From an uncultured Actinomycetota bacterium (lineage in GTDB: Bacteria; Actinomycetota; Actinomycetes; JAHEKZ01), in the NCBI GenBank assembly GCA_963824605.1, contig CAWGPZ010000009.1, positions 127,763-191,762 of the forward strand: a DNA stretch of 64,000 bases. Direction: 5' to 3'. Of the stretch, positions 18,838 through 51,024 are shown piece by piece; the first letter of the stretch is position 1; every line of letters starts with the position of its first letter. A program made the position numbers and the translations under genes. The notes beneath the pieces are model-generated. The model made no database searches, was not told the DNA's origin, and saw only the letters and a program-made list of their open reading frames with translations.

Positions 18838-18842
18838 CGACG

Positions 18843-19010
18843 TCAGCCCACCACGTCGACGAGTTGGTCACCCAGGTCTTTGGCCTCTTCGGCATTGAGC
18901 TCGACGACGAGTCGACCGCCACCTTCGAGGGGCACGCGCATGACGATGCCGCGACCCTCTTTGGTCACCTCGAGTGGTCCGTCGCCGGTGCGCGGCTTCA
19001 TGGCCGCCAT
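18843..19010 (-). CDS. DUF3117 family protein
   Basis: MAAMKPRTGDGPLEVTKEGRGIVMRVPLEGGGRLVVEL signature. Confidence 0.92.
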   Translation of the reverse strand: MAAMKPRTGDGPLEVTKEGRGIVMRVPLEGGGRLVVELNAEEAKDLGDQLVDVVG

Positions 19011-19130
19011 GGGCATCCCCTTTCCAGAAGGCAACGTGACCGAGGGTTCGGTACGTACAGCCCTTCGAACAATGCAGACTCATTATTCCGCACGGCTGAT
19101 GAGGGTGTGCGCCCGCCCCAATGGAGCGCG

Positions 19131-19586: not shown

Positions 19587-19886
19587 TTACTCCTCCGACG
19601 TCGAGTGCTGCCCTGCCTGGAGCTGCCGAATCTCAGCATCCCGCAGCGCGAGCTCGGCCGCGAGTCGGTCGAGCACCTCGTCGACCGCGGCCATCTGATA
19701 GCCGCGAACGGCCAAGGGAAGGCGCAACGTCTCGACGTCGGAGGCCACCATGGTGCGCTCCTGCGGCAACCGCACGACGACGTCGTCCGGCTCCTCCTCC
19801 ACCAATCCGTCGCCACGCCCCAGCGCGAGCAGGACCACCCCCAACAAGATGGCGCTGATCACCACCAGCCATAAAATCCACATCAT
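19587..19886 (-). CDS. DivIVA-domain membrane protein
   Basis: N-terminal TM, RGYQMAAVDEVLDRL. Confidence 0.82.
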   Translation of the reverse strand: MMWILWLVVISAILLGVVLLALGRGDGLVEEEPDDVVVRLPQERTMVASDVETLRLPLAVRGYQMAAVDEVLDRLAAELALRDAEIRQLQAGQHSTSEE

Positions 19887-25931: not shown

Positions 25932-25994
25932 CAGCCCTGGCGCCACGCCGCCGATTTCCGACCACCCCCTTCCATGACGCACACTGGGACGACT

Positions 25995-29575: not shown

Positions 29576-31180
29576 GTGGCCAACGAACGGTTCCAGACGC
29601 CCGAAGCAGAGGCACTGCGCAGACACCAGCGCGACGTCAGTGACGTTCACCTGCGTGACGCCCTCACCGATCCCGCTCGACCCGGGGCGATGACCCTGGC
29701 GGTCGGTCCACTCACGGTCGACTTCTCACGCATGCTCGGAGGGCCCGAAACGCTCGAGCTCCTGGGCGCATTGGCCGTGGCGCTTGACGTGCCCGCGCAA
29801 ATGAAGGCGATGGCCTCAGGCGCAGAGGTGAACACGACTGAGCACCGCGCCGCCCTGCACACGGCCCTGCGAGCCGATCCCCGGCAACCGATCATGGTCA
29901 CCGGCGAGGACGTCATGCCAGAAGTCCGAGGGACGGCGGACGCTGTCAGCGACTACGTCGAGTCGGTGACTTCCGGCAAGCGTTGCGGCGCCGACGGAGA
30001 CCGAATCTCCGATGTCGTCGTCATCGGAATCGGTGGTTCAGACCTCGGACCCCGAATGATCACCGCCGCCACTCGCGCACACCACACCGGACATGTGCGC
30101 GTCCACTTCGTGGCGAACGTAGACCCGGCCGAGCTGGACACCGTTCTGGCACCGCTGCAAGCGGCGTCCACGCTGGTCGTCGTGATCTCCAAGACCTTCA
30201 CGACGGTCGAGACACTCGCCAACGCCAAGGCAGCACGCGCTTGGCTGCTCAGCTCCGTAGGAGAAGAGGGGATCGCCCATCACCTCTGCGCAGTAACCAC
30301 CGCGGTAGAAGCAGCTGCCGCGTTCGGGGTCCCCGCGGACGCGGTGTTCGGCTTTCGCGACTGGGTGGGCGGCCGATTCTCACTCGCTTCGGCGGTGGGT
30401 ATCGGTATCGAGTTCGCGATCGGGCGTGAAGGCATGCAAGCGATGCGCGACGGCATGCGGTCGGTCGACGAGGGCTTCCTCACCGATCCACCCGAACGAA
30501 ACGCCGCGCTGCTACTTGGCATGCTCGACGTCTGGTACGGGGAGTACTTCGGCACAGCGACCAAGGCAGTGATCCCATACGCCCAAGACCTCGCCCTTCT
30601 GCCGAGCCACCTTCAACAGCTGCAGATGGAGAGCAACGGCAAGTCCGTCACGACTCAGGGTGATCCCGTCTCGTGGCCGACCTCGCCCATCGTGTGGGGC
30701 GCACCAGGGACGAACGGACAGCACGCCTTCTTCCAGCTGCTGCATCAGGGAACCCACCTGGTTCCTGTCGATCTGATCGGCGTCCGCTCGATCCAGGGCG
30801 GCGAACGAGCAGAGCTTCTGCAGGCAAACCTGCTGGCCCAGGCCGCTGCGCTCGCACTCGGACGCACCGCAGACTCATTGCGCGAGTCCGGAACCCCTGC
30901 AGAACTGATTCCGCACAAGGTGATGGCCGGAGACCGCCCCAGCACCTTGATCTGGATCCCCGACCTCAGTCCCTTGAGCGTGGGGGCGCTCGTGGCCCTC
31001 TACGAGAGCGCCACCGTCGTCTCAGGGATGGCCTGGGGCATCAACCCCTTCGACCAGTGGGGCGTCGAGCGCGGCAAAGAGCTGGCGAGCGCGCTCCTGC
31101 CTGCGGTGACCGGCGGCGCGACACCACCAGGGACGGACGAATCCACCGTTGCCTCGGTTGGCCACCTGCGCGGCACCTGA
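29576..31180 (+). CDS. pgi: Glucose-6-phosphate isomerase
   Basis: GIGGSDLG, SKTFTT, DWVGGRFS, QQLQMESNGK, GQHAF, FDQWGVE. Confidence 0.95.
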   Translation: MANERFQTPEAEALRRHQRDVSDVHLRDALTDPARPGAMTLAVGPLTVDFSRMLGGPETLELLGALAVALDVPAQMKAMASGAEVNTTEHRAALHTALRADPRQPIMVTGEDVMPEVRGTADAVSDYVESVTSGKRCGADGDRISDVVVIGIGGSDLGPRMITAATRAHHTGHVRVHFVANVDPAELDTVLAPLQAASTLVVVISKTFTTVETLANAKAARAWLLSSVGEEGIAHHLCAVTTAVEAAAAFGVPADAVFGFRDWVGGRFSLASAVGIGIEFAIGREGMQAMRDGMRSVDEGFLTDPPERNAALLLGMLDVWYGEYFGTATKAVIPYAQDLALLPSHLQQLQMESNGKSVTTQGDPVSWPTSPIVWGAPGTNGQHAFFQLLHQGTHLVPVDLIGVRSIQGGERAELLQANLLAQAAALALGRTADSLRESGTPAELIPHKVMAGDRPSTLIWIPDLSPLSVGALVALYESATVVSGMAWGINPFDQWGVERGKELASALLPAVTGGATPPGTDESTVASVGHLRGT

Positions 31181-31281
31181 GCCGGCCAGGGCATTCACGC
31201 CTGACGCACTCAGGTCTCTGCGCCACCGCCGAGTGAGCACTCGACGCGCCTGGAGCGCAACCAGGTGAGCACTCGGCAGGA

Positions 31282-33073
31282 CTAGTTGTTGTTGTCGCCG
31301 CCCGCCGCCGCCGCCAGACTGGTTGCCTGGTTTGTCGTTGGGCTTGTCAGACTTCTTCGGTTCATTCTGCTTGTCGGGCTTGGGCGCGCAGACCACGGTC
31401 GCCGCGGCGTCGTAGGAGGTGCGCAGCGGCTCGCGCCGCTCTACCTCACCGTTTCTCCTCCACACCCGCACCACGGTGATGTCGAACCCGTCCACACCCG
31501 CCTGCGCCACGCACTCGTCAGTCGTGTCGTAGACAGTTCCTGGCGTCCGGGGGTTCTCGCGTGGACCGAAGACGGCACCGATGTCCCAGTACTTCGTGCT
31601 CCACATCGTCGTGGTCACGGAGGTGTCGGTCACCGATGCGGTGATGTAGACGCCGTACGGAGTGTCGTTGCGGAACTTGAGGTCAAGGTTGCCCCACGAA
31701 ACCGTTGCCTCGAGACCTGCGGTGTACCGCGAGATCCAGTAGCTGTGGGCACGCTGCTCCAGCCTGGTCATGCCTGCGAAGAAGGCTGTGTGCCACATCG
31801 ACGTCGTGATCGTCGACACGGCACCGCCGTAGTCCTCGACGAGGCGTCCGTCCTGGATCACGAAACCTTCGACAAAGCCGTTCTCGGGTGTTCTCTCACC
31901 CACGACGCCGTTGAGGCTGAAGGTCTCACCGGGTTCGAGAATCGTTCCGTTGATGGAGTTCGCGGCGACGCCGATGTTCGTCACCCGGTAGGCGGCATAG
32001 GGGAAGTCCTGGGTGAACGTCGAGATCACCTCGCGCACGCCCAGCTTTCGGGCTTCGGCAGTGGTCAGCTCTGGTTCGACCCTCGTGAGATCAAGCGTGG
32101 CCGTGCGGGTGGACGAGGCCAATGCCTCGATCATGCCGAGCTCGAGCGCCTCATCATCGACACCCCGGCCCGTGCGGGCCTGCACCACCTTCGGGCTCCC
32201 CGAGGAGACGTTGAAGGTGGCATCGACCGCCGGGCTGCCCACCTCTTCAAGGGGCTCAGCCAACAGCTCGCGCAAGACAGGAACGTCGATCTCAGGTCTC
32301 AGCTCACCGGCCTTTGCCCGGTACGAGAGTGCCGCAGCAATCTGACGACGGGAAACCGTGAGGTCCGTACGGCCCATGCTCAGCGTGAGGGGCTTCGCGA
32401 TGGCCTCCTCCGCGTCGGTCGAAGCGAAGAGCTCCACTTCATCGGCCGAGACCTCGGGCACCACGGGCTCCACCGGCAGAGCCACCGGTTCGTCACTCAT
32501 CAGGTAGGCATCGACGATCGTCGAGGCAGCCTGACCGCGATCGAGCGCGTTCCCCGAGCGCGGCTCGATGACCACGACCGAGAGTCCGTCGTACTCGATG
32601 CGGGGCTGGCGCGGTGGGTCATCGACCCGGCGCGCCATCGAGCGCACTGCCCGGTCAAGCTGTTCCTGATCGACTTCGACGTCAGGCTCAAGGGACTGCC
32701 CGCCCACTTGTCCCACGAGTGCCTGGGGAGCGGCGGTCCGACGCGGAATGGCCGCAACGGTTGATACCGGATCGAAACCCAGTCCCAGCTGCTCGGCCGG
32801 GTACTCACGGACCGCGCCCTGCACGTCGACGGTCATCGCAACGGCACGATCGCTGAGCTCGTCGTTGAGTGTCTGCACGGCCTCGTCGTCAGACATGCCG
32901 CCGATATCGACGCCTGCGACCGTTGTGCCCCGAGGGATGCCTCCGCCGACCCAGGCGAAGGCCGCGAAGTAGGCGAGGAGCACCACAACCACCAGGCCGC
33001 CCGCGGTGACAGCCAAGAGCCGTCGAGTTCCCCCGAGACGACTCGAGGAAGCGTCCGGCGTGACCTCAGTCAT
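31282..33073 (-). CDS. VanW family protein with peptidoglycan-binding repeats (probable frameshift in Gly tail)
   Basis: TM, RVTNI, PGETFSLN..VGERT, HSYWISRY..GLEAT, DLKFRN; removing one G gives GGGGGDNNN-stop at 31282. Confidence 0.82.
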
Positions 33074-33575
33074 GGTCGCCGGCCGCGCCAAGCGAGCGAT
33101 AGCCCCTGCGGAAGTAGAGAAGTGGTTCAGGCAACGGGGGCACGGCGATCTCCAGCTCGGCGACTTCACCGACCACAATGTCGTGATCGCCGGCCTGGCG
33201 CACGTCGAAGGTGTGGCATTCCATGGCCGCGAGGGCTCCGTCGATCCAGGCAACGCCGTGTCGCGGCGAACGATGGTGGCCGGACCGCTTCAGCTGCCCC
33301 TCCAACGGGCGCCCCTTGGTGGCGAACCAGCGCGAAGTCTGCTCAGCATCTGCGGGAAGAATCGACACTCCCCATGCGTGCGCGGCGACGATCGCCTCAT
33401 GGAAACGTGACTCGCGCTCGACACTGACCAGGACGAGAAGAGGATCCAGGGACACCGAGGCAAAGGCGTTCGCGGTCATGGCGTGGTCGACACCGTCGAC
33501 CACGCAGGTGACGACAGTGATACCAGTGGCGAAGCGGCTGACCGCCTCACGGAACTCGTCAGGGGTCGGGGGCAC
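33066..33575 (-). CDS. Flavin reductase family protein
   Basis: FREAVSRFATGITVVT, SVSLDP, GDHDIVVG, PLLY. Confidence 0.9.
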   Translation of the reverse strand: MPPTPDEFREAVSRFATGITVVTCVVDGVDHAMTANAFASVSLDPLLVLVSVERESRFHEAIVAAHAWGVSILPADAEQTSRWFATKGRPLEGQLKRSGHHRSPRHGVAWIDGALAAMECHTFDVRQAGDHDIVVGEVAELEIAVPPLPEPLLYFRRGYRSLGAAGDHD

Positions 33576-33601: not shown

Positions 33602-34561
33602 CTAGTACGCCTGGGCTCCCGCGTATCGGGCGTTCGCGACCACGATTCCGGCTGGCGAGCTGACCAGACGCAAGGTGTTGAGCGAGGTCTCACCGAAGGC
33701 ATTGGCCCTGGCGCTGGACAGAGCGAGGACACCGATCATCCGCCCTCCTGCCTTGAGCGGCATGGACAGGAAGGTCGCCATCTCGCCTTCGTCCTCCGCA
33801 CCGAGGTAGCCCTCCGGGTCAGCCACCCTCGCCTGCAGATCGCCGACCGCGACGTCGACACCCGTGCTGTCAGTGGCGGCATCAGCGAGCGCGTCGAAGA
33901 ACTCGGAGTACTGCTGCTGTGACGTCTCCCGCGAGACGCGGATGTAGGTAGACCGGTCATCGAGCATCAGGACGGACGCCAGGTCGTAGTCGACCACTCG
34001 GCTGAGAACGTCGAGCACCTCGGCAATCGTCTCTTCGAACCCATGCACTCCGGAAGCGATCTGAGTGACCTCAGACGCCAGCGACGACTCAAAGAGCTTG
34101 CGGTCGAGCAGGTCGCTCACGCTGCCGAAGACATCGTCGTCCTGCATGTCGACGGGGTCGGGGCGCAGCGGCGGCCGTCCGCCACGAGCAGCGTCGGCCG
34201 CGCTGAGCACCTCGTGCACGGCCTCGACGAGCTGCGGGGCCTCGAAGTCCTTGGTCAGAAAGCGGTCAGCACCCGCCTGCGCTCCCCAGTAGCGGTCACT
34301 AGCGGCATCGAGCGAGGTCAGAAGCAGGATTGGGATGTCGGCCGTCCGCCAGTCGTCCTTGAGCAGTCTCGCTGTCACGTAGCCGGAGACCCTTGGCATC
34401 TGGACATCGAGCACGACGGCGTCTGGCATGTGCCGAAACACGAGTTGGACAGCTTCGACGCCGTCCTCTGCTTGAACGACGGTGTAGCCCTCTCGCTCCA
34501 GGACCGTCGAGACGATCCGACGCAGGGTAGGGCTGTCGTCGGCAATGACCACCGTCGGCAT
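33602..34561 (-). CDS. Response regulator, REC + GAF domain
   Basis: ADDS, LDVQMP phospho-Asp, LTS, FLTK; C-terminal GAF-like MPL..IGVLAL. Confidence 0.85.
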   Translation of the reverse strand: MPTVVIADDSPTLRRIVSTVLEREGYTVVQAEDGVEAVQLVFRHMPDAVVLDVQMPRVSGYVTARLLKDDWRTADIPILLLTSLDAASDRYWGAQAGADRFLTKDFEAPQLVEAVHEVLSAADAARGGRPPLRPDPVDMQDDDVFGSVSDLLDRKLFESSLASEVTQIASGVHGFEETIAEVLDVLSRVVDYDLASVLMLDDRSTYIRVSRETSQQQYSEFFDALADAATDSTGVDVAVGDLQARVADPEGYLGAEDEGEMATFLSMPLKAGGRMIGVLALSSARANAFGETSLNTLRLVSSPAGIVVANARYAGAQAY

Positions 34562-34646
34562 CTCGCGTCCTCTCTCTTTCGCTCATCGAGAACTTCGGTC
34601 GAAAGACCCCCTGACTTAACGGGTTCGGTCCCGCCGGCCTGCCCGC

Positions 34647-36854
34647 CTACCGCCCGACCAGCCGCCGCACCGTGTCGACGAGCTGAGACTGATCGAACTC
34701 GCTCTTGAGCAGATAGGCATTGGCCCCGGCATCGAGGCCAGCACGCTTGTCGGCGTCGTCGCCCCGCGAAGTCATGATGACGACGGGGACGCTCTCCCAC
34801 CCTCGGGTACGACGGATGGTCCTTGTCAACGTGAACCCATCCATACCGGGCATCTCCACGTCCGAGAGCACCAAGTCGACGGGGTCGCCGCTGAGGCGCG
34901 CCGCGCCGTCGCTGCCGTCGACTGCCGTCACGACGTCGTAGCCGGCTCCCTCGAGGATCACCCGCTGCAGTTCACGAACCCCGATCGAGTCTTCGACCAC
35001 CATCACGCGCGCCCGTCCAGTGGCAAGCCGGCCGGTCCGCTCGGGAATCACCGGGTCAGCGATGCCGTCGGCCGTCTGAGGAGTGGTGGGAGCATCGAGG
35101 GCGACGCCTCGCGCGTGCTGCTCGACCGCCATTTCCCGAACGTCAAGCAGCAACATCACACTGCCGTCGTTGGCGATCGTGCCTCCACCGATGAACGGCG
35201 GCCTTCCGAGGAAGCCCCCCAAGTCCTTGACGACGACTTCGAGTTCTCCCTCGAGCTCGTCGACCGCCCAAGCAAGCTGCTCTGACACGCCCCCATACCG
35301 GACGACCACACCAACCTTCGTCTCGCGGTCACCGTGCACACCAAGAGCGCTGCCAAGATCAGCGAGCGGGATGGTCGAACCGTGCCGGACAAGAACCGCC
35401 GCCCCTGCAACGGTGGAGGTCTCGACATCGCTCAGGCTGATGGTCTCGACGACATTGGTGACGGGGACGGCATAGCGCTCGCTGCCGAGCCGAGCCACCA
35501 GACACCGCATCACGCCCAGCGTGACGGGAAGCGTCATGATGAAACTCGTACCCTCACCCAGGGTGCTCTCGATCTCAATCGTCCCACCGAGGTCCTCAAC
35601 GGCTGTCCGCACGACATCGAGTCCGACTCCACGGCCCGACGTCGAGGTGACCTCATCGCGGGTACTGAACCCGGGCGCGAAGAGCACCGACATCAGAGCC
35701 TGACCCGTGACCTGCGTATCGGCGGTCAACAGTCCTCGTTCGATCGCTGAGAGCCGTAGCGCCTCCTCGTCGATCCCGTAGCCGTCGTCCGCGACCTCAA
35801 TGACGATCGTTGAGCCTGCGGCCCTTGCGGAGACCGTCACGGTGGCCTGGGCCGGCTTGCCGGCCGCAAGACGCTCGGAGGGAGTTTCACAGCCATGGTC
35901 GATGGCATTGGTCACGAGGTGACGCAGAGCATCGGCAACACCGTCGAGGACACGCGTATCGAGCTCGATGTCCTCGCCGATCAGTCGCAACCGAACATCT
36001 TTGGCGGTCGAACCCGCTACCTCGCGCACCAGCTGCGGGAAGGCTGCAAACACCCGTCGAGCCGGGACCATGGCCAGGCCCATCGCGCCGTCACGTACTT
36101 GCCCGAGGCCGTTCTGAGCATCTTCCATCGAGCCACGCATCTCGCGCGCCGCCGCCTGCAACTGGTCGCCGAGTGCCACCAGACTGTGCACGTTCTCGGC
36201 CACCTCGGACGGAACCGAGGCATCAGTTGCCGTCACCTGACGGAGGGCTCGGACGATGCGAACGTGTTCGGCCGCGAGACCGGTCAGCTCCAGAACGCCT
36301 TGTTCAACCCGACGCACCTCGAGCTCAGCCTCACCCACGACGTCCAAGAGGTCGTGGACACGTCGAACCGGTACGCGGACAGACTCGCCCGTCTTGGCTC
36401 TACCCCTGCCGTCGCTCTCGACCTCCTCCTCGGCGGCGGACAGTCGCGGAGTCTCCACAGGGTTCTTTCCATCGAGCGCATGGTCAAGGGCAGCGACCAC
36501 CTGGGCAAGATCATCGTCGCTGATCGCCCTGGCTGCTCCGGGCAGTCCCCGGCGAATGCCCTCCGCGGACGCGAGGAGGAGGTCGACGAGATCGCGGCGC
36601 GGCTCGAATCGGCCGTCCTTGATCGCGGTCAGTACATCCTCGGCGCGGTGGGCCAGCTCGACGACGTTGTCGAGGCCCCACATGGTGGCGCTGCCTTTGA
36701 CGGTGTGCGCATCGCGTGCAAGTTCCCTGATGAGCTGTCGGGGCTGCGGATGATTCTCGAGCTTCAGGAGCCCATCGCAGAGCGAGGCAAGACGGTCTTC
36801 GACTTCCTGTCTGAAGGTCGCCACCAGCTCGGGGTCATCGGCCCAGCTGCTCAT
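34647..36854 (-). CDS. cheA: Hybrid chemotaxis histidine kinase CheA (Hpt-dimer-HATPase-CheW-REC)
   Basis: AHTVKG Hpt, [32 protein letters not shown], CheW-like P5, C-terminal SDVEMP receiver. Confidence 0.93.
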
Positions 36855-38731
36855 GCGTTCACCAGTTCCTCTGCCGTTCCTGCAAGTGCTGTGTCTGTGC
36901 CTTCGTGATCGGTGGTCTTGAATTGGGCGATGGAGGCGCGGAGGTCGCCTGCGAGGGAGTTCAGCTCGGTAGCAGCAGCCGCCGCCTGCTTGGACCCCAC
37001 CGCATACTGCCGCGACACATCAGCGACCTGACCCATCGCCGACACCACCTGCTCAGACGCCGAACGCTGCTGCTGCGTCGCAATACTGATCTCCTTCGCA
37101 GCCGTCGTCGTCTCATCCACCATCCCCGAAATCCGCTCCAACGCCCCCACCACATCCCGCGCCAACGCAGACCCCGCATGAACCTCCCGCGACCCCTCCT
37201 CAGAAGCCAAAATCGTCGCGTTCGTCTCCGCCTGAATCTGCGTCACAATCGACTGGATCTGACCAGCAGACTCCTGCGACCGCTCCGCCAGCTTCCGAAT
37301 CTCCGCAGCGACCACCGCAAACCCACGCCCATGCTCACCCGCACGAGCCGCCTCAATCGCCGCATTCAACGCCAACAAGTTCGTCTGATCAGCCAACTCA
37401 TCAATCACCTGCAAAATCCGGCCGATCTCCTGACCCTTCTCCCCCAATCCCAACGCCCGAGAAGCAATCTGATCCACCCGCGACGAAATCTGATCCATCG
37501 CATCCACAGACGCCGACACCGCCACCCGACCCTGCTCAGCAAACCCCAAAGTCTCCGAAGCAAACGACGCCACCTGCTCAGCCGTCTCAGCAATCTGAGC
37601 CGCCGTCGCCGCCAACTCCTCAATCGTCGCCGACGTCTCCGACACCGCAGACGACTGCTCAGACGCAGCCGCAGCCTGCTCACGAGCAGCCACCAACACC
37701 TGAGAAGCAGACACCCCAATCTGCTCCCCACCCACCCGCACCCGAGACACCAAACCCCGCAACGACCCCAACGTGTGATCGAAGGACTGTGCAAGCGCCA
37801 CGAGGTACTCGGTGCGTTCGAATCCGAACTCGTTCTCTTCATCCAGGGTCACAAGATTGATCTGAGTGGTCAGGTCTCCTTGCGAAGCCGCCGTAAGCGC
37901 CTCTGACAGCTGACGCACCTGGTCGACCAGATGGGCCTGATCCCAACCCGCGCCCTCTGCCGTGTCGTAGAGCGACTTGCTCACACCACGCACAATCTGG
38001 AAGGCACCCGGGAGCCCGAGGCTCAACGCCAGGAGCAGAGTGACTGTGCTTGAGCCGGCGTCCAGGATCGTGCCCTCGGCAGCGAACTGAGTGGCGCTGG
38101 GCAAGACGAAAAGCAGTGCGAGGAGGACCCAGCCCAACCCGTAGACGAGAACGGTCCCGAGGTAGGCGAGAGCAACGACGACGGCCAGCCACTGGGCACT
38201 GCCGGCTCCACCCGTCCAGATCGCGGCGCTTGCCACCGCAAGAGTCTGCGCCATGCCGAGCCAGCCGTCCCAGACGTCCGTTCGCGAGTAGGTGTGCCGG
38301 CCACGGTAGGCACGGACTGCCAAGGTTGAGACCACCACTGCCAGGATGACACCGAGCGACCAGACGATCCACAGCTGAAAGGGGACTGCGGAGCCTTGTC
38401 CGAGGAAGTAGGTCATACCGAGCGCGATGCTGAACGCAACGAGACCGGCGTGCAGCGAGATGCTCTCCACCATGTTGCGGCGGGTGAACCTCAGCGACGC
38501 TCCCCCCGACTTGGTGCGGTCAATGGAGTCCAAGGCCGAGGTAAGCGCAGCGCTGGCCTCCGCTGACTGATGTGCGCTCACGTCTCCTCCATCAACGGCC
38601 ACAGTGACCGGTTCTTGGAGGTCATCGGCGTGCCCGGACACGGGCTGTAGCCCGTTTGGGGGACCGTGCAGCTCAGATCTGGGGCTGGGCCTCGTGCTCG
38701 ACCCTTCGCGCGGCAGGTCGGGGGTCGTCAC
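36851..38731 (-). CDS. Methyl-accepting chemotaxis protein 1
   Basis: Multi-TM N-terminus, HAMP-like [31 protein letters not shown]. Confidence 0.92.
36919..37780. repeat. MCP signalling-domain repeat, copy 1 (862 bp)
   Basis: Matches 38741-39602 (offset 1822) and 40470-41331. Confidence 0.92.
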
Positions 38732-40313
38732 CGGAGTCCTTGAATTGGGCGATGGAGGCGCGGAGGTCGCCTGCGAGGGAGTTCAGCTCGGTAGCAGCAG
38801 CCGCCGCCTGCTTGGACCCCACCGCATACTGCCGCGACACATCAGCGACCTGACCCATCGCCGACACCACCTGCTCAGACGCCGAACGCTGCTGCTGCGT
38901 CGCAATACTGATCTCCTTCGCAGCCGTCGTCGTCTCATCCACCATCCCCGAAATCCGCTCCAACGCCCCCACCACATCCCGCGCCAACGCAGACCCCGCA
39001 TGAACCTCCCGCGACCCCTCCTCAGAAGCCAAAATCGTCGCGTTCGTCTCCGCCTGAATCTGCGTCACAATCGACTGGATCTGACCAGCAGACTCCTGCG
39101 ACCGCTCCGCCAGCTTCCGAATCTCCGCAGCGACCACCGCAAACCCACGCCCATGCTCACCCGCACGAGCCGCCTCAATCGCCGCATTCAACGCCAACAA
39201 GTTCGTCTGATCAGCCAACTCATCAATCACCTGCAAAATCCGGCCGATCTCCTGACCCTTCTCCCCCAATCCCAACGCCCGAGAAGCAATCTGATCCACC
39301 CGCGACGAAATCTGATCCATCGCATCCACAGACGCCGACACCGCCACCCGACCCTGCTCAGCAAACCCCAAAGTCTCCGAAGCAAACGACGCCACCTGCT
39401 CAGCCGTCTCAGCAATCTGAGCCGCCGTCGCCGCCAACTCCTCAATCGTCGCCGACGTCTCCGACACCGCAGACGACTGCTCAGACGCAGCCGCAGCCTG
39501 CTCACGAGCAGCCACCAACACCTGAGAAGCAGACACCCCAATCTGCTCCCCACCCACCCGCACCCGAGACACCAAACCCCGCAACGACCCCAACGTGTGA
39601 TCCAACCGTCCGGCCAGAGCGACCGTGCCCTCAGCCTGCAAAGTCAACGACGACATCTCTACCGCCAGATCGCCAGCAGCCACCTCATCAGCAGCACCCG
39701 ACATCGCCACCACATCAGACTCGACCGCATGCCGGGTCGCCTGCGCCTCAGCCTGCGCCCGGTACATGCTCATCGTCATCAGGTCAGTCACCGTCGCCAA
39801 CACAATCGCCAGCACAATCAACCCGATCCCACGAGCCGCACCCTCACCACCCCACGAATCCGTCACCACACCAGTGACCACCATGCCTGCGGCGATGAAC
39901 AGGCCAAGGAATCGCGCAACGATGCCGCCATAGACGCCACTCGCATAGGTGATCATCACCAAGGCAACGACGGGGACCGGACCAGCGAGTCCACCCGCAA
40001 AGACCCCGAAGGAGAGCGAGAGAATGAGGGTCACCGATGTGGTGGGCCGATCCCAACGATCGGTTTCTGCGAACGAGTCCCCCCGGGAAACCGCTCGATT
40101 GGCCAGGTAGCTGACAAGCACGACGTTGACCAGGAGCGCGGCATAGAGGCCGGCAAGAGCAGGCCAGTTGAAGTCCAGGAAGGGCTCGAACTTCGCCGTC
40201 GCCCAGATCAGAACTGGCGCGGCGAGCGCGACGCCCACATGCGATGCCACGGTCTCTAACCTGGAGCGCGAGGTGTACGGGATCTCGCTGTAGTCCACGT
40301 TGTCGGCAAACAC
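38673..40313 (-). CDS. Methyl-accepting chemotaxis protein 2
   Basis: GTG start after GAGGAGG; multi-TM; same signalling domain. Confidence 0.9.
38741..39873. repeat. MCP repeat, copy 2 (1133 bp shared with copy 3)
   Basis: Matches 40470-41602 (offset 1729); only four substitutions spotted by eye. Confidence 0.92.
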
Positions 40314-40440
40314 GCTTCCGCGCCTCCTCGGTCCCAATAGGCAGTCAGTTCTGCTTCGGACAGTCACTGCCGGGCCTGTAGGCCGATCGGGTGGCAGTTC
40401 CATGACAGGAACTGCCTTGAGCCGCAGTGTTGACCTGGGG

Positions 40441-42042
40441 TTATCGGTAGGCGGGTTCGTCGGTGGTGGTGAATTGGGCGATGGAGGCGCGGAGGTCGCC
40501 TGCGAGGGAGTTCAGCTCGGTAGCAGCAGCCGCCGCCTGCTTGGACCCCACCGCATACTGCCGCGACACATCAGCGACCTGACCCATCGCCGACACCACC
40601 TGCTCAGACGCCGAACGCTGCTGCTGCGTCGCAATACTGATCTCCTTCGCAGCCGTCGTCGTCTCATCCACCATCCCCGAAATCCGCTCCAACGCCCCCA
40701 CCACATCCCGCGCCAACGCAGACCCCGCATGAACCTCCCGCGACCCCTCCTCAGAAGCCAAAATCGTCGCGTTCGTCTCCGCCTGAATCTGCGTCACAAT
40801 CGACTGAATCTGACCAGCAGACTCCTGCGACCGCTCCGCCAGCTTCCGAATCTCCGCAGCGACCACCGCAAACCCACGCCCATGCTCACCCGCACGAGCC
40901 GCCTCAATCGCCGCATTCAACGCCAACAAGTTCGTCTGATCAGCCAACTCATCAATCACCTGCAGAATCCGGCCGATCTCCTGACCCTTCTCCCCCAATC
41001 CCAACGCCCGAGAAGCAATCTGATCCACCCGCGACGAAATCTGATCCATCGCATCCACAGACGCCGACACCGCCACCCGACCCTGCTCAGCAAACCCCAA
41101 AGTCTCCGAAGCAAACGACGCCACCTGCTCAGCCGTCTCAGCAATCTGAGCCGCCGTCGCCGCCAACTCCTCAATCGTCGCCGACGTCTCCGACACCGCA
41201 GACGACTGCTCAGACGCAGCCGCAGCCTGCTCACGAGCAGCCACCAACACCTGAGAAGCAGACACCCCAATCTGCTCCCCACCCACCCGCACCCGAGACA
41301 CCAAACCCCGCAACGACCCCAACGTGTGATCCAACCGTCCGGCCAGAGCGACCGTGCCCTCAGCCTGCAAAGTCAACGACGACATCTCTACCGCCAGATC
41401 GCCAGCAGCCACCTCATCAGCAGCACCCGACATCGCCACCACATCAGACTCGACCGCATGCCGGGTCGCCTGCGCCTCAGCCTGCGCCCGGAACATGCTC
41501 ATCGACATCAGGTCAGTCACCGTCGCCAACACAATCGCCAGCACAATCAACCCGATCCCACGAGCCGCACCCTCACCACCCCACGAATCCGTCACCACAC
41601 CAACCAGCACGATGCATGCGGAAACCCATACGCCGAGGAACCGGACGATCCAGCCGCTGTACACGCTGGTTGCGTAGGTGATGGGAATGAGGAGCGCCAC
41701 AGGCACCGGACCGTTCAAGCCACCCCCCGCGATGGCCGCTCCCGTCGTCGCCGCGAAAGCGACCGTCATCGTGGGAATCTCCCACCGGTCAACAGCCTCA
41801 TAGTGGTCGCCACGGCCAACGGCACGGAACGCCATCAGAACGGCGAAGGCCGTATTCGCCACCAACACGGTGATGAAGACGGCGCCGAGCCACATCGTGA
41901 TCTCCACCGCCGGCAGCACGATGGCAGTGGTCGCGATGAGGAGCGCGACTGCAGCCGTCAGGGCACCATGAGACGTGATCGTCTCCCACATCGCCCGGCG
42001 CGTATAGGGCACCAGGGTGTAGTCGACGTCGTCGTCCAGCAC
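40441..42042 (-). CDS. Methyl-accepting chemotaxis protein 3
   Basis: GTG start after GGAGG; multi-TM; same signalling domain. Confidence 0.92.
40470..41602. repeat. MCP repeat, copy 3
   Basis: Near-identical to copy 2. Confidence 0.92.
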
Positions 42043-42167
42043 GACAAATCAGTCCCTCCGCGGATCCTCGTGCCGTGACATCGGCTGACTCGACGCACTT
42101 CTTGATCACGGGCCAGGACCCGATGTCGCCACAGGATCGATCGACGCCGACAGACGGGGAGTGACTA

Positions 42168-42707
42168 TCAGCCCGCAGCTCGGCGAGCAGCGGGGAGCCG
42201 CTCGCGTAGTCGAAGAACGGCTTCGGTCGCCAGAAGCGCAACAGGACCGTCGACGTCGACGACGCCACGCACGAGGGGTGCGATCCCCGTCGCAATCGTG
42301 GCAGGCACCGGCTCGAGATCTCGGGCGTCGCAGTCGAGCAGGCCGGGAACCATGTCGGCCACCAGCCCGACTTCGATGTCGGCCTCGGCCAGCACGACCA
42401 ACCGGGCACTCGTCGGCATCGGCGACAGGGTCGCCCCCACCAGCGGCCTCAGGTCGATCACCGGAAGTACCCGTCCACGCCAGTTGACGACCCCTGACAG
42501 CCATGCCGGACCGCCAGGGATCCGAGTCAACACAGGGACAGGCACCACTTCAGCAACCGACGCCATGTCGACGGCGTAGCGGCCGCCGGCGAACCGCAGA
42601 ATGACGCCGCCGATCGGCGCGGCATCTTCCTCAGATGCCTCATCGGCCACGCCTGCAGGACTAGTCAGGGACTCCACGGACTGACCATCGGCCATCCGGG
42701 TGACCAC
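42168..42707 (-). CDS. cheW: Chemotaxis coupling protein CheW
   Basis: YAVD..VAEV, TRIPGGPAWLSGVVNWRGRVLPVIDL, VGLVAD. Confidence 0.9.
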   Translation of the reverse strand: MVTRMADGQSVESLTSPAGVADEASEEDAAPIGGVILRFAGGRYAVDMASVAEVVPVPVLTRIPGGPAWLSGVVNWRGRVLPVIDLRPLVGATLSPMPTSARLVVLAEADIEVGLVADMVPGLLDCDARDLEPVPATIATGIAPLVRGVVDVDGPVALLATEAVLRLRERLPAARRAAG

Positions 42708-42737
42708 CTGTAGACCCCCGATGGCCTGAGGGGCAGG

Positions 42738-44684
42738 TCAACGCGGGGCTGACTCCCGGTCGCCCACGCCTCGAAGGTCAATGACCTGTTCCTCCTGGGC
42801 AGCGGCCAGGACATCGGTGATCTCACGCCCGATCAGCTCTTCGCGCTCGAGGAGTGCGTCACGCAGGGCTTCGACCAGGTGGGCGTTCGACTCGAGCAGG
42901 CCCTTGACGATCACCTTCTGCTCCTGCAGGAGGTCTTCCACGGCGGCGCGACCCGCAGGATCAGCCAGGACACGCCCCACGATGTTGCTGTCGTTCAGAG
43001 CGCTGTTCTGGATCGCGGCAAAGGAGATCAGCGAATCGATCATGCCGCAGGAACCCACCATCTCCGCAGCGACGTTCGTGGCGTAGAGAAGGTCGCCACC
43101 GGGACCTGTCGACACGTCCCCGAAGAAGATCTCTTCAGCGCACTGGCCGCCCATGGCGATCTGGATGAGGGCCAACATCTCGGTACGTGACCTCGTGTAC
43201 ACCTCTTCTGCATCACCGTGGGCGAGCATGCCGAGGGCGGACCGTCGCTTGATGATGGTCAGTACCTCGAGCCGACGCTCAGGTGCCACCAGGAAGGCGG
43301 CAGTGGCGTGTCCCGCCTCGTGCGTCGAGATCAACCGTCGCTCGTGCACGGTGTATGCGACCGGCTGCCCCATTCCCACTTCTTCAACGAGTCTGGCCCG
43401 TTCGACGTCCGACCAGCTCATCTCCGAGTCCCCACGCCGCACTGCGTTCACCAGAGCCTCGTCCAGCAGGTGTTCGATCATGACGGGGGTGTAGCCCTGG
43501 GTGGCGGCGGCGAGCGAGTCGCGACGATCTTCGGTGTCGAGCTCTTCGCCGTGAGACTTGATGCCCAAGTAGTGATCGATGATCTCGCGGCGCCCCGACT
43601 TTGCCGGCAGTTCGAAGGTGAGCCGCCGGTCAAAGCGTCCAGGACGCAACAGCGCGGGATCGAGGTTGTCGGCCCGGTTGGTGGCAGCGATCAGAAGCAG
43701 ATTGGTCGACGGAGGCTCGGGGCGACTCAACTGACGATGTGAAGGCAGGTAGAGATTGGCCCAGTCCACCATCTTGGTGCGCAGCTTCTGCAGGCCGGTG
43801 GGCTGATCGAACGACTGCATCTGCACCAGCAGCTCGTTGACGACTCCGCCTACCCCTTCGCTGGTGATCGAGGCGTTGCTCACGGGACCCGCCGGTGCTC
43901 CATACCCAGAAGGCAGCGAGGTCATCCCCCCACATGCGTGGACGCCCAGCGAAGCAAGGGATGGGGGAAGAGGAGTTGCGGACAAGCCACCACGAGACAT
44001 GGCGATGGCGTCGATCTCTTCGATGAAGCCGATTGCGCCGCCCTCGGCCCGAGCGACCTTGCGCAGCTGCTTGAAGTACGACCGGATCTTGCGCGCGGTG
44101 GCGCCGTAGTACATCGACTGAAAGGAGGTCGCCGATACGAACAGGAAGGGCACCCCCGCTTCGCGCGCCATCGCCTTCGCCAGATAGGTCTTCCCCGTTC
44201 CAGGTGCCCCTTCGAAGAGAATTCCCCGCCGCGGCGTCCCACCCATGTCGTTGGCAAAGGCCTTGTGCGCCAGGAAGAGATTGAGTGATCGAATCACCTC
44301 GTCCTTCACCGGGTCGATGCCCTTTACATCGTCGAGCCGCGTCGAAATCTGTTCGGGGCGGTACATCACGTGGGGCGACCGTCCGGCGCCCACGGTGGTG
44401 CCGACGATGATGAGGAGCAGCGCGCTGAAGAACAGAATGGGCACCAGCAGGTACGCGTCGATACTGGGCAGCCCCCACTCGGCGGGATTGCCGCTGAGGA
44501 TCCGGTACCAGAGATAGAGGGCGGGGATACCGAGCCACACGGCCATGACGCGGAGCCGATGGCGTCGCTTCGACTCTCGGGACGCACCGACGTCGGCGTC
44601 ACCGGCGCGCATCACCGTCGTGCTCGAGAGCGAGGGTCCCGTCAATGCAGACACCTCGGTGGCCTCACGCTCTGTATCTGACAC
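42738..44684 (-). CDS. FtsH-like membrane AAA+ ATPase / M41 metalloprotease paralogue
   Basis: Two TM, GAPGTGKT, FIEEID, ATNRADNLDPALLRPGRFDR, HEAGH, STGPGGDL. Confidence 0.88.
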   Translation of the reverse strand: MSDTEREATEVSALTGPSLSSTTVMRAGDADVGASRESKRRHRLRVMAVWLGIPALYLWYRILSGNPAEWGLPSIDAYLLVPILFFSALLLIIVGTTVGAGRSPHVMYRPEQISTRLDDVKGIDPVKDEVIRSLNLFLAHKAFANDMGGTPRRGILFEGAPGTGKTYLAKAMAREAGVPFLFVSATSFQSMYYGATARKIRSYFKQLRKVARAEGGAIGFIEEIDAIAMSRGGLSATPLPPSLASLGVHACGGMTSLPSGYGAPAGPVSNASITSEGVGGVVNELLVQMQSFDQPTGLQKLRTKMVDWANLYLPSHRQLSRPEPPSTNLLLIAATNRADNLDPALLRPGRFDRRLTFELPAKSGRREIIDHYLGIKSHGEELDTEDRRDSLAAATQGYTPVMIEHLLDEALVNAVRRGDSEMSWSDVERARLVEEVGMGQPVAYTVHERRLISTHEAGHATAAFLVAPERRLEVLTIIKRRSALGMLAHGDAEEVYTRSRTEMLALIQIAMGGQCAEEIFFGDVSTGPGGDLLYATNVAAEMVGSCGMIDSLISFAAIQNSALNDSNIVGRVLADPAGRAAVEDLLQEQKVIVKGLLESNAHLVEALRDALLEREELIGREITDVLAAAQEEQVIDLRGVGDRESAPR

Positions 44685-44837: not shown

Positions 44838-45689
44838 TCAGGCCCAGAGCGGGCCGAGGTCACCGCGCACCAGCCGGAAGTACTCGACACCCATGGCCTC
44901 AGGTCCTACGAGATCCGAGAGGCGAAACAAGTCGTTCTCCACTCCGACCTGGGTGAGATGCGCGCGAAGGGCTGCCATCTTGTGCGGCTCCTGGTCAAGG
45001 GCGACGACCGCGGTGGTGACCAGCTCGTCGTCGAGGGCCCACGGCAGCTCTTCTCCCTCGGCCAGGCCGAAGAACCCTTGGCCACCGGCCGCGACGAAGG
45101 CAGCGACCCCCCGCTCAACCGCCGCCTTCGGGAGCGCCGTCCAGTAGAGCTTCTGGACGTCCCATGCTTCGCCAAGATCAGGACGGAACGAGGGAGCCGC
45201 TGCGAGCACAAGGGCGTAGCTCGTGACCCGGTGGGCCTGGATATGGTCAGGATGGCCGTACTGGCCGAAGTCGTCGTACGTCACCACCACCTGCGGACGA
45301 GTACGCCGGATCGTGCTCACCAGATGCGTGGCCGCTTCCAGCAGGTCAGCGCGCCAGAAGCACTCAGGATGCTCGTTGGCCGGCGTCCCCATCATGCCTG
45401 AGTCCCGGTAACGCCCGGGCCCACCGAGGTACTCGTGGTCGCTCACGCCGAGCAGCGCCAGCGCCTCCGCGAGCTCAACTCGTCGATGGGCACCCAGTTC
45501 GTCCTTCTCGTGGGCGGCTAGATGGCCGAGTTCGGGGATGAGCACCTCACCCTCCTCACCCAACGTGCAGGTGACGAGCGTGACGTGGGCCCCTTCCGCC
45601 ACATACTTGGCCAGCGTGACGCCGGTGCCGATCGTCTCGTCGTCGGGATGGGCATGGACGGCGAGCAGGCGTTGATCACTACGCGACAT
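44838..45689 (-). CDS. mshB: Mycothiol biosynthesis deacetylase
   Basis: VHAHPDDE, CTLGEEGE, YRDSGMMG, YGHPDHIQ, AHLTQ. Confidence 0.9.
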   Translation of the reverse strand: MSRSDQRLLAVHAHPDDETIGTGVTLAKYVAEGAHVTLVTCTLGEEGEVLIPELGHLAAHEKDELGAHRRVELAEALALLGVSDHEYLGGPGRYRDSGMMGTPANEHPECFWRADLLEAATHLVSTIRRTRPQVVVTYDDFGQYGHPDHIQAHRVTSYALVLAAAPSFRPDLGEAWDVQKLYWTALPKAAVERGVAAFVAAGGQGFFGLAEGEELPWALDDELVTTAVVALDQEPHKMAALRAHLTQVGVENDLFRLSDLVGPEAMGVEYFRLVRGDLGPLWA

Positions 45690-45736
45690 GACCACGAGCC
45701 TAGGACCGATCGACCCCTCTGCTGAATGATGGGGCG

Positions 45737-47828
45737 ATGACCATCTCCGTTCCCGACTCATTCCCTCGCCAGAATGCTCGCACCCAGCGCTTCACCCTCG
45801 GTCGCCCCCGCTCGTTCAGCGTCTCTCCCGACGGGTCGACGGTTCTCTTCGTCCGCTCCTCGTCGGGTACCGATCGAGTGGGGCGGCTGTGGCGTTGGAC
45901 GGCTGAGGAGGGCGAAGCAGAACTGGTCGACCCCCATCGGCTGCTCTCCGGAGCCGACGAAGAACTCAGCGCTGCTGAGAAGGCCCGACGAGAGCGCGCT
46001 CGGGAGGCAGCCGGCGGAATTGTGGGCTACTCGGTGGACTCCGACTTCTCGTGCGTGGTGTTCAGTCTGTCCGGGCGCCTCTTCACCACTTCCTTGGCGG
46101 GTACGCACGCCACCCGTGAGATCGACGTTCCCGGTCCGGTGGTCGACCCTCGAGTCGACCCCACTGGCCAGCGCGTGGCCTTCGTCGCCGCCGGCCGCCT
46201 TGTACGTCGTGAGTCTCGCCGATGGTGCTGTCCGCGCCCTCTCACCCGAGGAGAGCAGTGCCGACGTCACATGGGGTCTGGCTGACTTCATTGCGGCCGA
46301 GGAGCTCGAGCGGTCTCGCGGCTTCTGGTGGTCACCGGAAGGAACCCAGCTGCTGGCACAGCGCAGCGACGAGTCGGGCGTGCGCACCTGGTTCGTCAGC
46401 AACCCTGCGATACCTGACGCAGCACCAATTGCTCAGCGGTACCCCGCGGCTGGAACTCCCAATCCCGCGGTCAGTCTGTGGCTCCTCGACATCGCGGGTG
46501 GCGTCTCCGAGGTCCCACTGCCCGACGGAGCGGAGTACCTCTCAACCGTCCACTGGTCTGATCGGGGTGCGCCGGTCCTTGGGGTGCTGGACCGGCGACA
46601 GCAGTCCGCCAGCTGGCACAGAGTCGACGTCGTTGCGCACACCACCCACCTGCTGCGCACAGTGACGGACGAGGCATGGGTCGACGTGGTGCCGGGTAGT
46701 GGCTCATGGGACTTCGACGGACGTCTCTTGACCGTCGAGGTCCGCGATGGCGACTACGCCCTCTGCCGAGACGGCGAACGCATCTCGCCCGTCGATCTGC
46801 AGGTACGAGCCGTGGCGTCGGTCGGCGCCGCCCACATCACGGTGCTGGGATCTGAGGACCCAGGCGACCAGCAGGTCTGGTCATTGACCGGAAGGTCCGC
46901 TCAGCTGCTGAGCCCGGTGGGCGGGTGGTCCGCAATCGCGGAGGGCGGGACGACGCGCGTTGTCGTCTCCGCCGATCTCGACCGGGCGCTGCCGTCGGCC
47001 ACCATCACGACAGAGACCGTGACACATGACGTCAGCTCGCTTGCCGACCTCCCTCTGGTCACCCCCCAGGTGACACTGATTCCGGGTGGCCCTGACCAAC
47101 CAAGAGTCGCGCTGCTCCTCCCCGCTGCGTGGACACCCGACGACGGTTCCCTTCCCATTCTCATGAACCCTTATGGCGGTCCACACCACGTGAGCGTGGC
47201 GCATCATCAGGGAGCGTTTCGTGAGTCGCAGTGGTTTGCGAACCAAGGCTTCGCCGTCGTCGTCGTCGATGGGCGCGGCACGCCTGGGCGTCCTGGCTGG
47301 GAGCGTGCGGTCCGCGGTGACTTCGCCGGCCCCGTCCTCGAAGACCAGATCACCGGTCTGCACGCAGTGGCCCACGCTTTCCCTGAACTCGATCTCGGAC
47401 GTGTCGCAATTCGGGGGTGGTCGTTCGGGGGCTACCTGGCGGCACTTGCCGTCATCGACCGCCCCGACGTCTTTCACTCCGCCATCGCCGGCGCGCCCGT
47501 CACCGACTGGATGCTCTACGACACCGGATATACCGAGCGCTACCTCGGAGTTCCCGGCGACGGGGCCGACGGCGCCTACCGAACGAGTTCACTTCTCGAG
47601 CGGGCGAGCAGTCTCACACGGCCGCTTCAGGTCATTCATGGGCTCGCTGACGACAACGTCTTCGTCGCCCACTCGCTTCGCTTGTCGCAGGCACTGACCG
47701 AGAACGGTTGCCCCCACGAAGTGCTCCCTCTGACAGGTATCACCCACATGGCGACGCAGGAGGATGTGGCCGAGAGCTTGCTCACGCTGCAGGTCGACTT
47801 CCTCAGGCGATCCTTGGGGATCAGCTAG
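45737..47828 (+). CDS. S9 family (DPP IV-like) peptidase (frameshift near 46200)
   Basis: RFTLGRPR N-terminus, [32 protein letters not shown]. Confidence 0.87.
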
Positions 47829-49778: not shown

Positions 49779-50636
49779 CTACGCGGCCTGCGTGGGCGTC
49801 GTACGGACGGTGAGCCCGGTGCCGTCCGGCGCCAGCTGATAGTCGACGTGGATGCGGTCCAGGGCAGCCAGGCTGGGCACGTGCGTGCCGCCGCAGGGAA
49901 TCTCGGCGAGACCGTCGCTGAGAGCACAGGTCCATCGCCGAGGGGCCGTCACCCGGAGATCTCCGTCGTCGACCACGGCAACGGGAGCGCCCGCCTCGAC
50001 CCAGGCCGTGAGCTGGGACTCGACCTCGTCGACAATCGCCGGGAGGCCGTCGGCGAACGCCGCTGACTCGAACCCCCGCTTTCGCAGGCTCTTGCCGAAC
50101 CGGTAGACGTCCGACGATCCCTCCACATCCATGACGGACGAGACCATGGCGAGCTGATCGAGGTCCGGGCTTCCCAGGCTGTCGACCCGCACCTCCTTGC
50201 GCCAGAACGTTGCCGCTGCCCGGTTCATGGCGAGGGCAGAGAGGTGACAGGCCGTGTGGGCCGCGGAGAGCGCGCGACGCCGCTGGTCGTCCACCTCCAG
50301 GCTCACCTCGGCACCAATGGCCGGCAGGGTCGTCGTCTCGTCGAGTCGGTGCACGACGAACCAATCCCACCCGGGCTCGCCACGCTTCACCGGGATGTCA
50401 GGCCCGACCCGCAATGCTCCGTCCGGCCCTGCAGCAGCCATCAGGGTGTCGACGACTGCGCTGTCCCCGCAGGAGCCCACATCACCGGGCTGATCCGGCC
50501 AGGTGTGATCAACAGGGTGAAACGGCGTCCGATCGACCACTACCAGAGGCCGGCCCAGTGCGTCCGTCTCTGAACGCACCACAGTGCCTCGACCTGTGGT
50601 CGTCCCCGACGCAAAGGTCACGATCGTGTCAGTCAT
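49779..50636 (-). CDS. AlaX-like (alanyl-tRNA editing domain) metal-dependent hydrolase
   Basis: TPFHP..WPDQPGD, HTACH, CGGTH. Confidence 0.8.
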
Positions 50637-50769
50637 GCACCCAGCCAACACCAGTTGCGCGCGAATGCTGGCGCCCGGGCCCTGTCTTCGACAGACTGCC
50701 ATGGTCGATGTGATGGACGTCACGCTCTCGCAAGGCGCGTGACCTGGCAGAGGTGGAGGCGGCTCGCAC

Positions 50770-51024
50770 ATGACCATTCCCTCGCAAGACGTCAGCGCTG
50801 CCCGCAGGGCGGCCCGAGACCTGGTGCGAGCAGTCGAGCACCTCAAGTCACGGCACGGTGACAGCGTCGACATGCGCCGTCTGCTCGCCGACGCCCAGCG
50901 AATCAGCGAGGACCTCGACATCCTTGCCGGCCCGGACGCCGCGGAGCCCGGCGTGGGCGAGCCGATCATGATCCCCGACCACGACTACCCGCCCGAGTTC
51001 TGGAACGACGCCGACCGCGAGTAA
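50770..51024 (+). CDS. Small conserved protein heading Sdh1-type operon
   Basis: GDSVDMRRL..PDHDYPPEFWND; GGAGG RBS; position. Confidence 0.7.
   Translation: MTIPSQDVSAARRAARDLVRAVEHLKSRHGDSVDMRRLLADAQRISEDLDILAGPDAAEPGVGEPIMIPDHDYPPEFWNDADRE

Follow-up and report, generated by a model that had tools for sequence, protein, structure and literature searches.

A conserved chemosensory gene cassette next to an FtsH paralogue in a non-flagellated actinomycete, with its adaptation genes at a second locus

This analysis concerns a stretch of 64,000 nucleotides, referred to as the window, from the genome of an uncultured actinobacterium (assembly GCA_963824605.1, contig CAWGPZ010000009.1, positions 127,763 to 191,762; G000:C9:127763-191762 in the notation used here, where G000 is this genome and C4, C5, C6, C8, C9, C13 and C15 are contigs of it). 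The assembly comprises 2.77 Mb in 17 contigs and is 99.4% complete, with contamination rated at 3.4%. Within the window, seven genes follow one another on the minus strand: a paralogue of the membrane protease gene ftsH, cheW1, three genes for methyl-accepting chemotaxis proteins (MCPs), a gene for a CheA kinase with a fused receiver domain (CheA-REC), and a gene for a response regulator that joins a receiver to a GAF domain (REC-GAF) (locus A; Table 1). A preliminary description of this DNA had reported this co-oriented run, which is borne out by the open reading frames (ORFs), by the Pfam domains found at the stated places and by a gap of 30 nt between the TGA of the FtsH paralogue and the GTG of cheW1. 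The run is flanked upstream by mshB, an S9 peptidase gene on the opposite strand and typA, and downstream by a VanW/PG_binding_4 gene (vanW) and pgi. The host had been taken for an actinobacterium, in keeping with the MshB assignment of the upstream gene, which scores above its family cut-off, and with the named relatives, all of which are Actinomycetes. With a probability of about 0.75, the run is the core locus of a two-locus, Wsp-like pathway of the alternative cellular functions (ACF) type that adapts by methylation in a non-flagellated actinomycete, the protease being separable from it.

The arrangement recurs in many relatives. Among 201 genomes sampled evenly over the class (G000 included, each at least 90% complete), the FtsH paralogue occurs in 94 and the CheW family in 93; both are found in 82, the paralogue only in 12 and CheW only in 11. 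The surroundings of the paralogue were fetched from 91 of the 93 other positive genomes, two flagged as unpublished being left out. The tallies for the class sample, for the phylum-wide sample and for the CheR-TPR and PilT orthologues discussed below include genomes so flagged, and no conclusion is drawn on those alone. The cassette, defined as cheW, the MCP gene or genes, cheA-REC and the REC-GAF gene lying 3' of the paralogue, comes next in 67 of the 91 loci and is missing in 19, while the contig ends too soon in the other 5. The 19 cassette-less genomes belong to at least ten families; 17 were judged from sufficient flanking sequence and two have no CheW family match at all. The gene order in the relatives (80 loci) is typA, S9 peptidase, mshB, FtsH-like gene, cheW, one to several MCP genes, cheA-REC, REC-GAF and vanW, and in 8 of these 80 loci vanW follows the FtsH-like gene directly; mshB adjoins the paralogue in most fetched loci. 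These relatives are uncultured Actinomycetes carrying Nanopelagicales, Sporichthyaceae, Frankiales and Mycobacteriales labels, together with the cultured Longivirga aurantiaca. Because it is found again in 67 of 91 loci from other genomes, the arrangement is not due to chance.

Table 1. Features of locus A and its immediate flanks (window coordinates)
Feature	Position	Strand	Domains and remarks
FtsH paralogue	42738..44684 (longest ORF to 44792)	-	Pfam AAA 2.3e-28, Peptidase_M41 1.3e-27, AAA_lid
CheW1 adaptor	42168..42707	-	Pfam CheW 3.5e-28
MCP1	40441..42042	-	MCPsignal 2.1e-43; sensor of about 5-6 transmembrane segments, HAMP-like linker, 40H-type signalling domain
MCP2	38673..40403	-	MCPsignal 2.3e-43; polytopic sensor differing from that of MCP1, same signalling domain
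MCP3	36851..38731	-	MCPsignal 6.3e-44; distinct polytopic sensor, long N-terminal tail, same signalling domain
CheA hybrid kinase	34647..36854	-	Pfam: one Hpt, HATPase_c, CheW-like domain, C-terminal REC
REC-GAF response regulator	33602..34561	-	Pfam REC 3.7e-25, GAF_2 4e-12; presumed output
3' block common to the three MCP genes	36917..37780, ~38739-39602, ~40468-41331	-	99-100% nucleotide identity
mshB (mycothiol deacetylase)	44838..45761	-	TIGR03445 326 bits, cut-off 224; 5' neighbour of the FtsH paralogue, syntenic backbone marker
VanW/PG_binding_4 gene	31022..33253	-	Pfam; backbone gene directly after the FtsH paralogue in cassette-less loci

The genes for adaptation lie elsewhere in the genome. 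Whole-genome family searches gave no match within the window to CheR, CheB, a further CheW, FlhA or flagellin, and the only receiver matches on the contig of the window are those in CheA and in the REC-GAF protein. The absence of CheR and CheB noted in the preliminary description thus holds for the window; it does not hold for the genome, in which profile searches found one match to each family, side by side on C6 (locus B). The CheR is a protein of 487 aa that combines the CheR domain (1.4e-53) with a TPR_2/TPR_16 tail (CheR-TPR), and directly 3' of its gene lies cheW2, the third CheW-family match of the genome (C6:58235-58669; 51.5 bits against a cut-off of 23.5). The order at locus B is clpC, an HhH-GPD gene, a small exported-protein gene, cheB, cheR, cheW2, disA and radA. 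No second CheA was found in the genome by tblastn with the window proteins, and therefore the cheB-cheR(TPR)-cheW2 operon must serve the cassette of the window. The distribution of the genes agrees with this assignment. At a threshold of E <= 1e-60, with other CheRs well apart at 1e-43 and weaker, an orthologue of the CheR-TPR was detected in 63 of the 67 cassette-positive genomes and in none of the 19 cassette-negative genomes that keep the FtsH paralogue. The two loci have been co-inherited across many families. All 20 genomes sampled for locus B have cheB and cheR at this same site between clpC and disA, and cheW2 was detected in 19 of them; the division between two loci is therefore an old one, and the genes for adaptation are to be counted with the cassette.

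The state of cheB in this strain needs separate consideration. When a full-length CheB from a relative is aligned to the cheB region (L003:9455-10779, L003 being a fetched stretch of C6), the match is spread over three frames that break near L003:9838 and 10065 (about 55837 and 56064 on C6). The gene is intact and in one piece in 18 of the 19 other family members; the nineteenth genome, 69% complete, gave no match. A true pseudogene, and with it a pathway decaying in this strain, is a distinct if minor possibility on these grounds. It is opposed by the intactness of all other pathway genes and by a gene in the window itself, encoding a pyridoxal-phosphate-dependent decarboxylase, that shows the same kind of split near 5690-5700; because of this second case, an assembly error was rated likelier than a pseudogene and is probably the cause. 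The decarboxylase gene (Orn/DAP/Arg type, window 4980-6501) runs over two frames that cover profile positions 16-101 and 104-247, and its break is likely an assembly indel. The 257-aa methylesterase ORF of locus B had also been read as a CheB without a receiver, as in FrzG. This reading was dropped: a receiver-like ORF lies upstream of it in another frame (Pfam REC 24.5 bits, below the cut-off), the receiver is intact in relatives, and all of the 20 genomes sampled have 166-426 residues, the receiver included, ahead of the methylesterase in its frame. In this and several other families the CheB receiver has lost its acidic pair (VAIVAG in place of VDDS) and kept the aspartate of LDLD, while elsewhere it is canonical. 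A conserved gene just 5' of cheB (L003:8801-9424), matched in 14 of 20 relatives sampled, encodes an exported protein that is anchored in the membrane, rich in Ser/Thr/Pro and provided with a Cys-containing domain at its C-terminus.

By hydropathy, each of the three receptors has 5-6 hydrophobic segments and lacks a periplasmic domain. Residues 278-525 of MCP1 (248 aa) correspond to residues 4-223 (220 aa) of the Tsr chain 1qu7, a difference of 28 aa or four heptads, and MCP1 aligns without gaps to 6s18 over 310-524 and over 335 versus 335 positions to a model of CtpM. Tsr is a 36-heptad (36H) receptor and the Pseudomonas receptors of 6s18 and CtpM are 40-heptad (40H) ones, and the signalling domain is accordingly of 40H-type length. 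Glx pairs (IEEL, TQQQ) stand in A/S/T-rich contexts on both arms, which is the pattern of methylation sites, at the usual places of the methylation helices. A block of about 860-1100 nt is common to the 3' ends of the three genes, whose 5' sensor parts do not align. The copies are spaced 1822 and 1729 nt apart, their identity per 100 nt is 99-100, and the longest exact run, between MCP2 and MCP3, is 864 nt. The block is the product of concerted evolution (gene conversion) or of recent module exchange, and one array thereby receives three inputs. Among relatives in the family, the number of MCP genes at this spot ranges from one to eight. Two further MCPs were found by tblastn outside the window, on C8 and C4.

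At the other end of the pathway, the REC-GAF gene has kept its place as the last gene of the cassette in relatives. The residues D8, D9, D52, T82 and K104 are invariant in 20 orthologues, and the predicted structure (mean confidence score, pLDDT, 89.5) consists of the receiver, a long helix and the GAF domain; Pfam recognizes no enzymatic or DNA-binding domain in the protein. A fold search with the model returned as its best two-domain match a REC-GAF dual-sensor kinase fragment (6oaq, template modelling score 0.38), the remaining matches being receivers, and gave no clue to a GAF ligand. Similarly, a protein atlas search yielded unnamed REC-GAF clusters only, mostly from Actinomycetota, and no functional lead. 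The only stand-alone receiver in the genome, of 147 aa, is encoded on C13 between an EamA transporter gene and argS (L217:6711-7154, L217 being a fetched stretch of C13). This orphan receiver is the best match to the receiver of CheA, at 38% identity, and could act as a CheY-like sink, though its gene is unlinked. Ten GGDEF matches were found in the genome, none of them near locus A or locus B.

Several features place the system among non-flagellar pathways. Searches with FHIPEP (FlhA) and Flagellin_N found no match in this 99.4%-complete genome, and control genomes were positive. The proposal of a non-flagellar, alternative-function system in the preliminary description is supported by the CheA-REC, the multidomain regulator, the 40H-type receptors and the lack of flagellar export and filament genes at this completeness. 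In Pseudomonas, the Wsp system (WspA-F and WspR), the model of the ACF class, consists of a 40H-type membrane MCP, two CheW proteins, a CheR-TPR, a CheA-REC, a CheB with a receiver and a multidomain regulator. Loci A and B together supply MCPs, two CheW, a CheR-TPR, a CheA-REC, a CheB and a multidomain regulator, and the pathway is called Wsp-like for this reason; the likeness, which extends to the absence of a flagellar role, is one of parts list rather than of tested orthology. The system differs from Wsp in that its output is REC-GAF instead of REC-GGDEF, which sets it apart from Wsp proper. Furthermore, its genes are divided between two distant loci, its receptors have 5-6 transmembrane segments without a periplasmic domain and come in three copies on one signalling domain, and its CheB receiver lacks the acidic pair in this family. 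Features shared with the Frz system of Myxococcus xanthus are a CheA-REC (FrzE), a CheR-TPR (FrzF), two CheW proteins and the absence of flagella. However, FrzCD is cytoplasmic and the FrzZ output is REC-REC, whereas the receptors here are membrane proteins, the output is REC-GAF and the CheB has a receiver.

The assignment to the ACF class is based on marker features, namely the REC-GAF regulator, the CheR-TPR, the 40H-length receptors and the lack of flagellar genes. According to one comparative study, CheR-TPR proteins and multidomain regulators, with GAF among the fused domains, mark ACF pathways; CheR-TPR is found in WspC and in ACF systems, FrzF being a CheR-TPR as well, and in 2012 such proteins were known almost only from Gram-negatives (PMC3447774). 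More recently, ACF systems with 40H receptors were reported from six species of the class Actinomycetia (Zhu et al. 2023; PMC10746217). The pathway described here agrees with these systems of flagellated Actinobacteria in class, receptor type and taxonomic position. They differ in that the six species were analysed for their flagella, and the available part of that text describes neither this cassette nor its REC-GAF output or position (PMC10746217). In the literature searched, supplements apart, neither a link between an FtsH paralogue and a chemosensory system nor a description of this cassette was found.

Since flagella are lacking, type IV pili come into question as the target of the pathway, as in the Pil-Chp or Frz systems, and pilus control had been one of the functions suggested for it. 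The genome does contain an apparently complete type IV pilus cluster on C5 (L212:8524-19037, L212 being a fetched stretch of C5), with pilB (including an MshEN domain), a gene for a 579-aa PilT with a long N-terminal extension, pilC, four prepilin-like genes, a 468-aa gene without assignment and pilD. The receptors, moreover, are of 40H length, which is the length of PilJ. Against these likenesses to Pil-Chp (Tfp) stand the single Hpt domain of the CheA, the absence of PilG/PilH-type single-domain regulators from both loci and the lack of linkage between the cassette and pil genes. In addition, the CheR-TPR and the multidomain regulator point to the ACF class. The distribution of PilT is also unfavourable: at a threshold of at least 60% identity and E <= 1e-111, its orthologue occurs in 16 of the 19 cassette-less genomes and in 59 of the 67 with the cassette. 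Pili are thus common to the whole group without tracking the cassette. A pilus cluster is present, a specific link to it is unsupported, and the system is not placed in the Tfp class; that it steers pili is unlikely. A further gene for a PilB/GspE-type ATPase with MshEN lies within the window (13179-15056), beside an Mrp/ApbC-type gene and with no other pilus genes nearby.

The FtsH paralogue at the head of the run is a divergent member of its family. Its longest ORF extends beyond the GTG at 44684, and this GTG is the likelier start because it is preceded by AAGGAG, a ribosome-binding site. The protein has two transmembrane helices, one strongly and one more weakly hydrophobic, separated by a loop of about 12 aa, and no periplasmic domain. 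With 278.6 bits it falls below the equivalog cut-off of 600 for TIGR01241, and for this reason it is filed as a divergent paralogue of AAA + M41 architecture. In a pairwise alignment with the canonical FtsH of this genome (C6; 35% identity), it has kept Walker A, the pore aromatic, the arginine-finger region, HEAGH and the downstream metal-ligand region. It thus resembles the canonical FtsH of E. coli and T. maritima (TIGR01241) in its membrane anchor, Walker A, pore-loop aromatic, second region of homology, HExxH and third-ligand region. It differs from it in lacking the periplasmic domain, in two AAA-domain inserts (about 45 and 31 aa), in a Walker B that reads EE for DE and in being a second copy beside canonical FtsH. 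Judged by these motifs, the paralogue has the FtsH-type architecture of transmembrane anchor, AAA domain with Walker A/B and arginine fingers, and M41 domain with HExxH, and it looks active. The canonical FtsH gave identical tblastn rows at C6:28982-30250 and C15:21710-22978, which points to a duplicated or redundant stretch of the assembly.

The preliminary description had proposed that this protease is dedicated to the pathway and may take the place of methylation, adapting or resetting it through the degradation of receptors. In its favour are the shared strand, the 30-nt gap without a terminator-like site and an adjacency kept in 67 of 91 loci. The receptors are also polytopic membrane proteins, the sort of substrate that FtsH handles, and the protease motifs are intact. 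The proposal is nevertheless highly improbable. Cognate cheR and cheB genes elsewhere, which the description itself had named as evidence to the contrary, do exist, and the cheB-cheR(TPR)-cheW2 operon tracks the cassette (63/67 vs. 0/19). The receptors also carry Glx pairs, and the protease and the cassette each occur without the other. On the one hand, the paralogue persists in the 19 genomes without the cassette and is found in other classes: in a phylum-wide sample (151 genomes, G000 included; E <= 1e-100) it occurs in 44, mostly at 50-62% identity, and no genome of this sample other than G000 has a CheA more than 40% identical to that of the cassette. Five genomes of this sample have both FtsH-like and CheA matches, always on different contigs. 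On the other hand, one relative (G143, 97% complete) has the order typA-mshB-cheW-mcp (L215, that is G143:C56:1-14000), the paralogue being gone there and from the rest of the genome at E <= 1e-120. A second case of a cassette without the paralogue, in G174, sits on a 3.4-kb contig too short to judge. In addition, 0.9-9 kb of other DNA separates the FtsH-like gene from cheW in 8 of 66 loci. The FtsH-like/CheW/MCP neighbourhood named in the preliminary description is conserved in the 67 loci, while the 19 others show the paralogue standing apart from it. The paralogue family thus predates the cassette and is more widely distributed; in one clade, the cassette was inserted, or originated, between the paralogue and vanW.

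In most of the other loci among these 66, the gap between the FtsH-like gene and cheW measures 440-880 nt and holds a small gene for a protein with four transmembrane segments (4-TM). This fast-evolving gene follows the paralogue at L091:12148-12579 (L091 being the locus of Longivirga aurantiaca CGMCC 4.7317), in 20 more of the 80 loci and in 3 of the 91. It does so in cassette-less loci also, and its product may be a partner or a substrate of the protease. A tblastn search at E <= 1e-3 found no homologue in the present genome, a weak negative for a gene that evolves so fast.

A looser coupling, confined to the clade, has to be weighed as well. Here the paralogue, with its 4-TM partner where there is one, and the cassette would form one transcription unit, and the protease would tune the abundance of receptors or arrays alongside methylation, or else the REC-GAF protein would act on the protease. 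The tight spacing in this genome, the overlapping or abutting ORFs in Longivirga aurantiaca, the single clear case of a cassette away from the paralogue and the correlation between CheW identity and FtsH-like identity across loci (r = 0.81) are consistent with such a tie, and in this family the paralogue and the cassette may share a transcript. However, mshB correlates just as well (r = 0.80), so the relationship reflects shared vertical descent on a syntenic backbone, and losses of either partner alone occur. Contigs from metatranscriptomes (four runs from four studies, X1-X4) match parts of each of the seven genes (identity at least 95%), and none of those listed bridges 42707-42738; this does not show separate transcription, as such contigs neither prove a transcript nor exclude DNA in the library. 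A consensus scan of the junction, which is uninformative for an actinomycete, found no terminator-like and no promoter-like site. On balance, this looser coupling is unlikely. It is, if anything, a shade less probable still that the paralogue and the cassette behind it became one functional unit in the clade, with the protease setting receptor abundance or phosphorylated REC-GAF gating the protease. The FtsH paralogue is thus a conserved upstream neighbour rather than a demonstrated component of the pathway, and most likely an independent quality-control or regulatory protease for membrane proteins rather than the adaptation device. One of the RNA-library contigs, from X2, connects 40409 back to 38671 through 8 additional letters, which fits a strain with a different arrangement of MCP copies or a misjoin induced by the repeat.

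Some observations weigh against the two-locus pathway with a separable protease. The gap between the paralogue and cheW1 is just 30 nt with no terminator-like site, the adjacency persists in 67 of 91 loci whose proteins range from about 57 to 97% in identity, which leaves room for a looser functional tie, and in the class sample the cassette is almost never seen without the paralogue (the clear case of G143 and the contig of G174 that does not permit a judgement). The CheR-TPR orthologue was not found in 4 of the 67 cassette-positive genomes, all four being assemblies of 220-480 contigs. The split in cheB, if real, would mean a loss of demethylation in this strain. Finally, the ACF-type assignment is one by marker features and to that extent provisional.

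The two-locus pathway with a separable protease suggests the following course of signalling. The receptors would sense a membrane-associated signal through their variable modules of 5-6 transmembrane segments. On their shared 40H domain, the three receptors would form one array with CheW1, CheW2 and CheA. CheA would then phosphorylate the REC-GAF protein, with its own receiver probably serving as a sink or relay, and CheR-TPR and CheB would reset the receptors by methylation and demethylation. Phosphorylated REC-GAF, in turn, may act on its target via protein contact or via ligand binding by the GAF domain.

Elsewhere in the window, four ORFs of 272-396 aa (49779-50969, 51069-51887, 25974-26966 and 18640-19698) have no Pfam family at E <= 0.001.

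Chemosensory pathways with outputs other than motility are known mostly from Proteobacteria and Myxococcus. The present system adds a vertically inherited pathway that is present in many families of non-flagellated and mostly uncultured actinomycetes of soils, sediments and freshwater. It is a useful variant, combining a REC-GAF output, exchangeable membrane sensors on one homogenized signalling domain and adaptation genes at a second conserved site. The second locus also shows that the view from a single window can wrongly suggest a methylation-free system. If gating of the protease by REC-GAF were true, a chemosensory array would control regulated membrane proteolysis. The cultured Longivirga aurantiaca possesses the whole arrangement, and the pathway is hence open to experiments at the bench.

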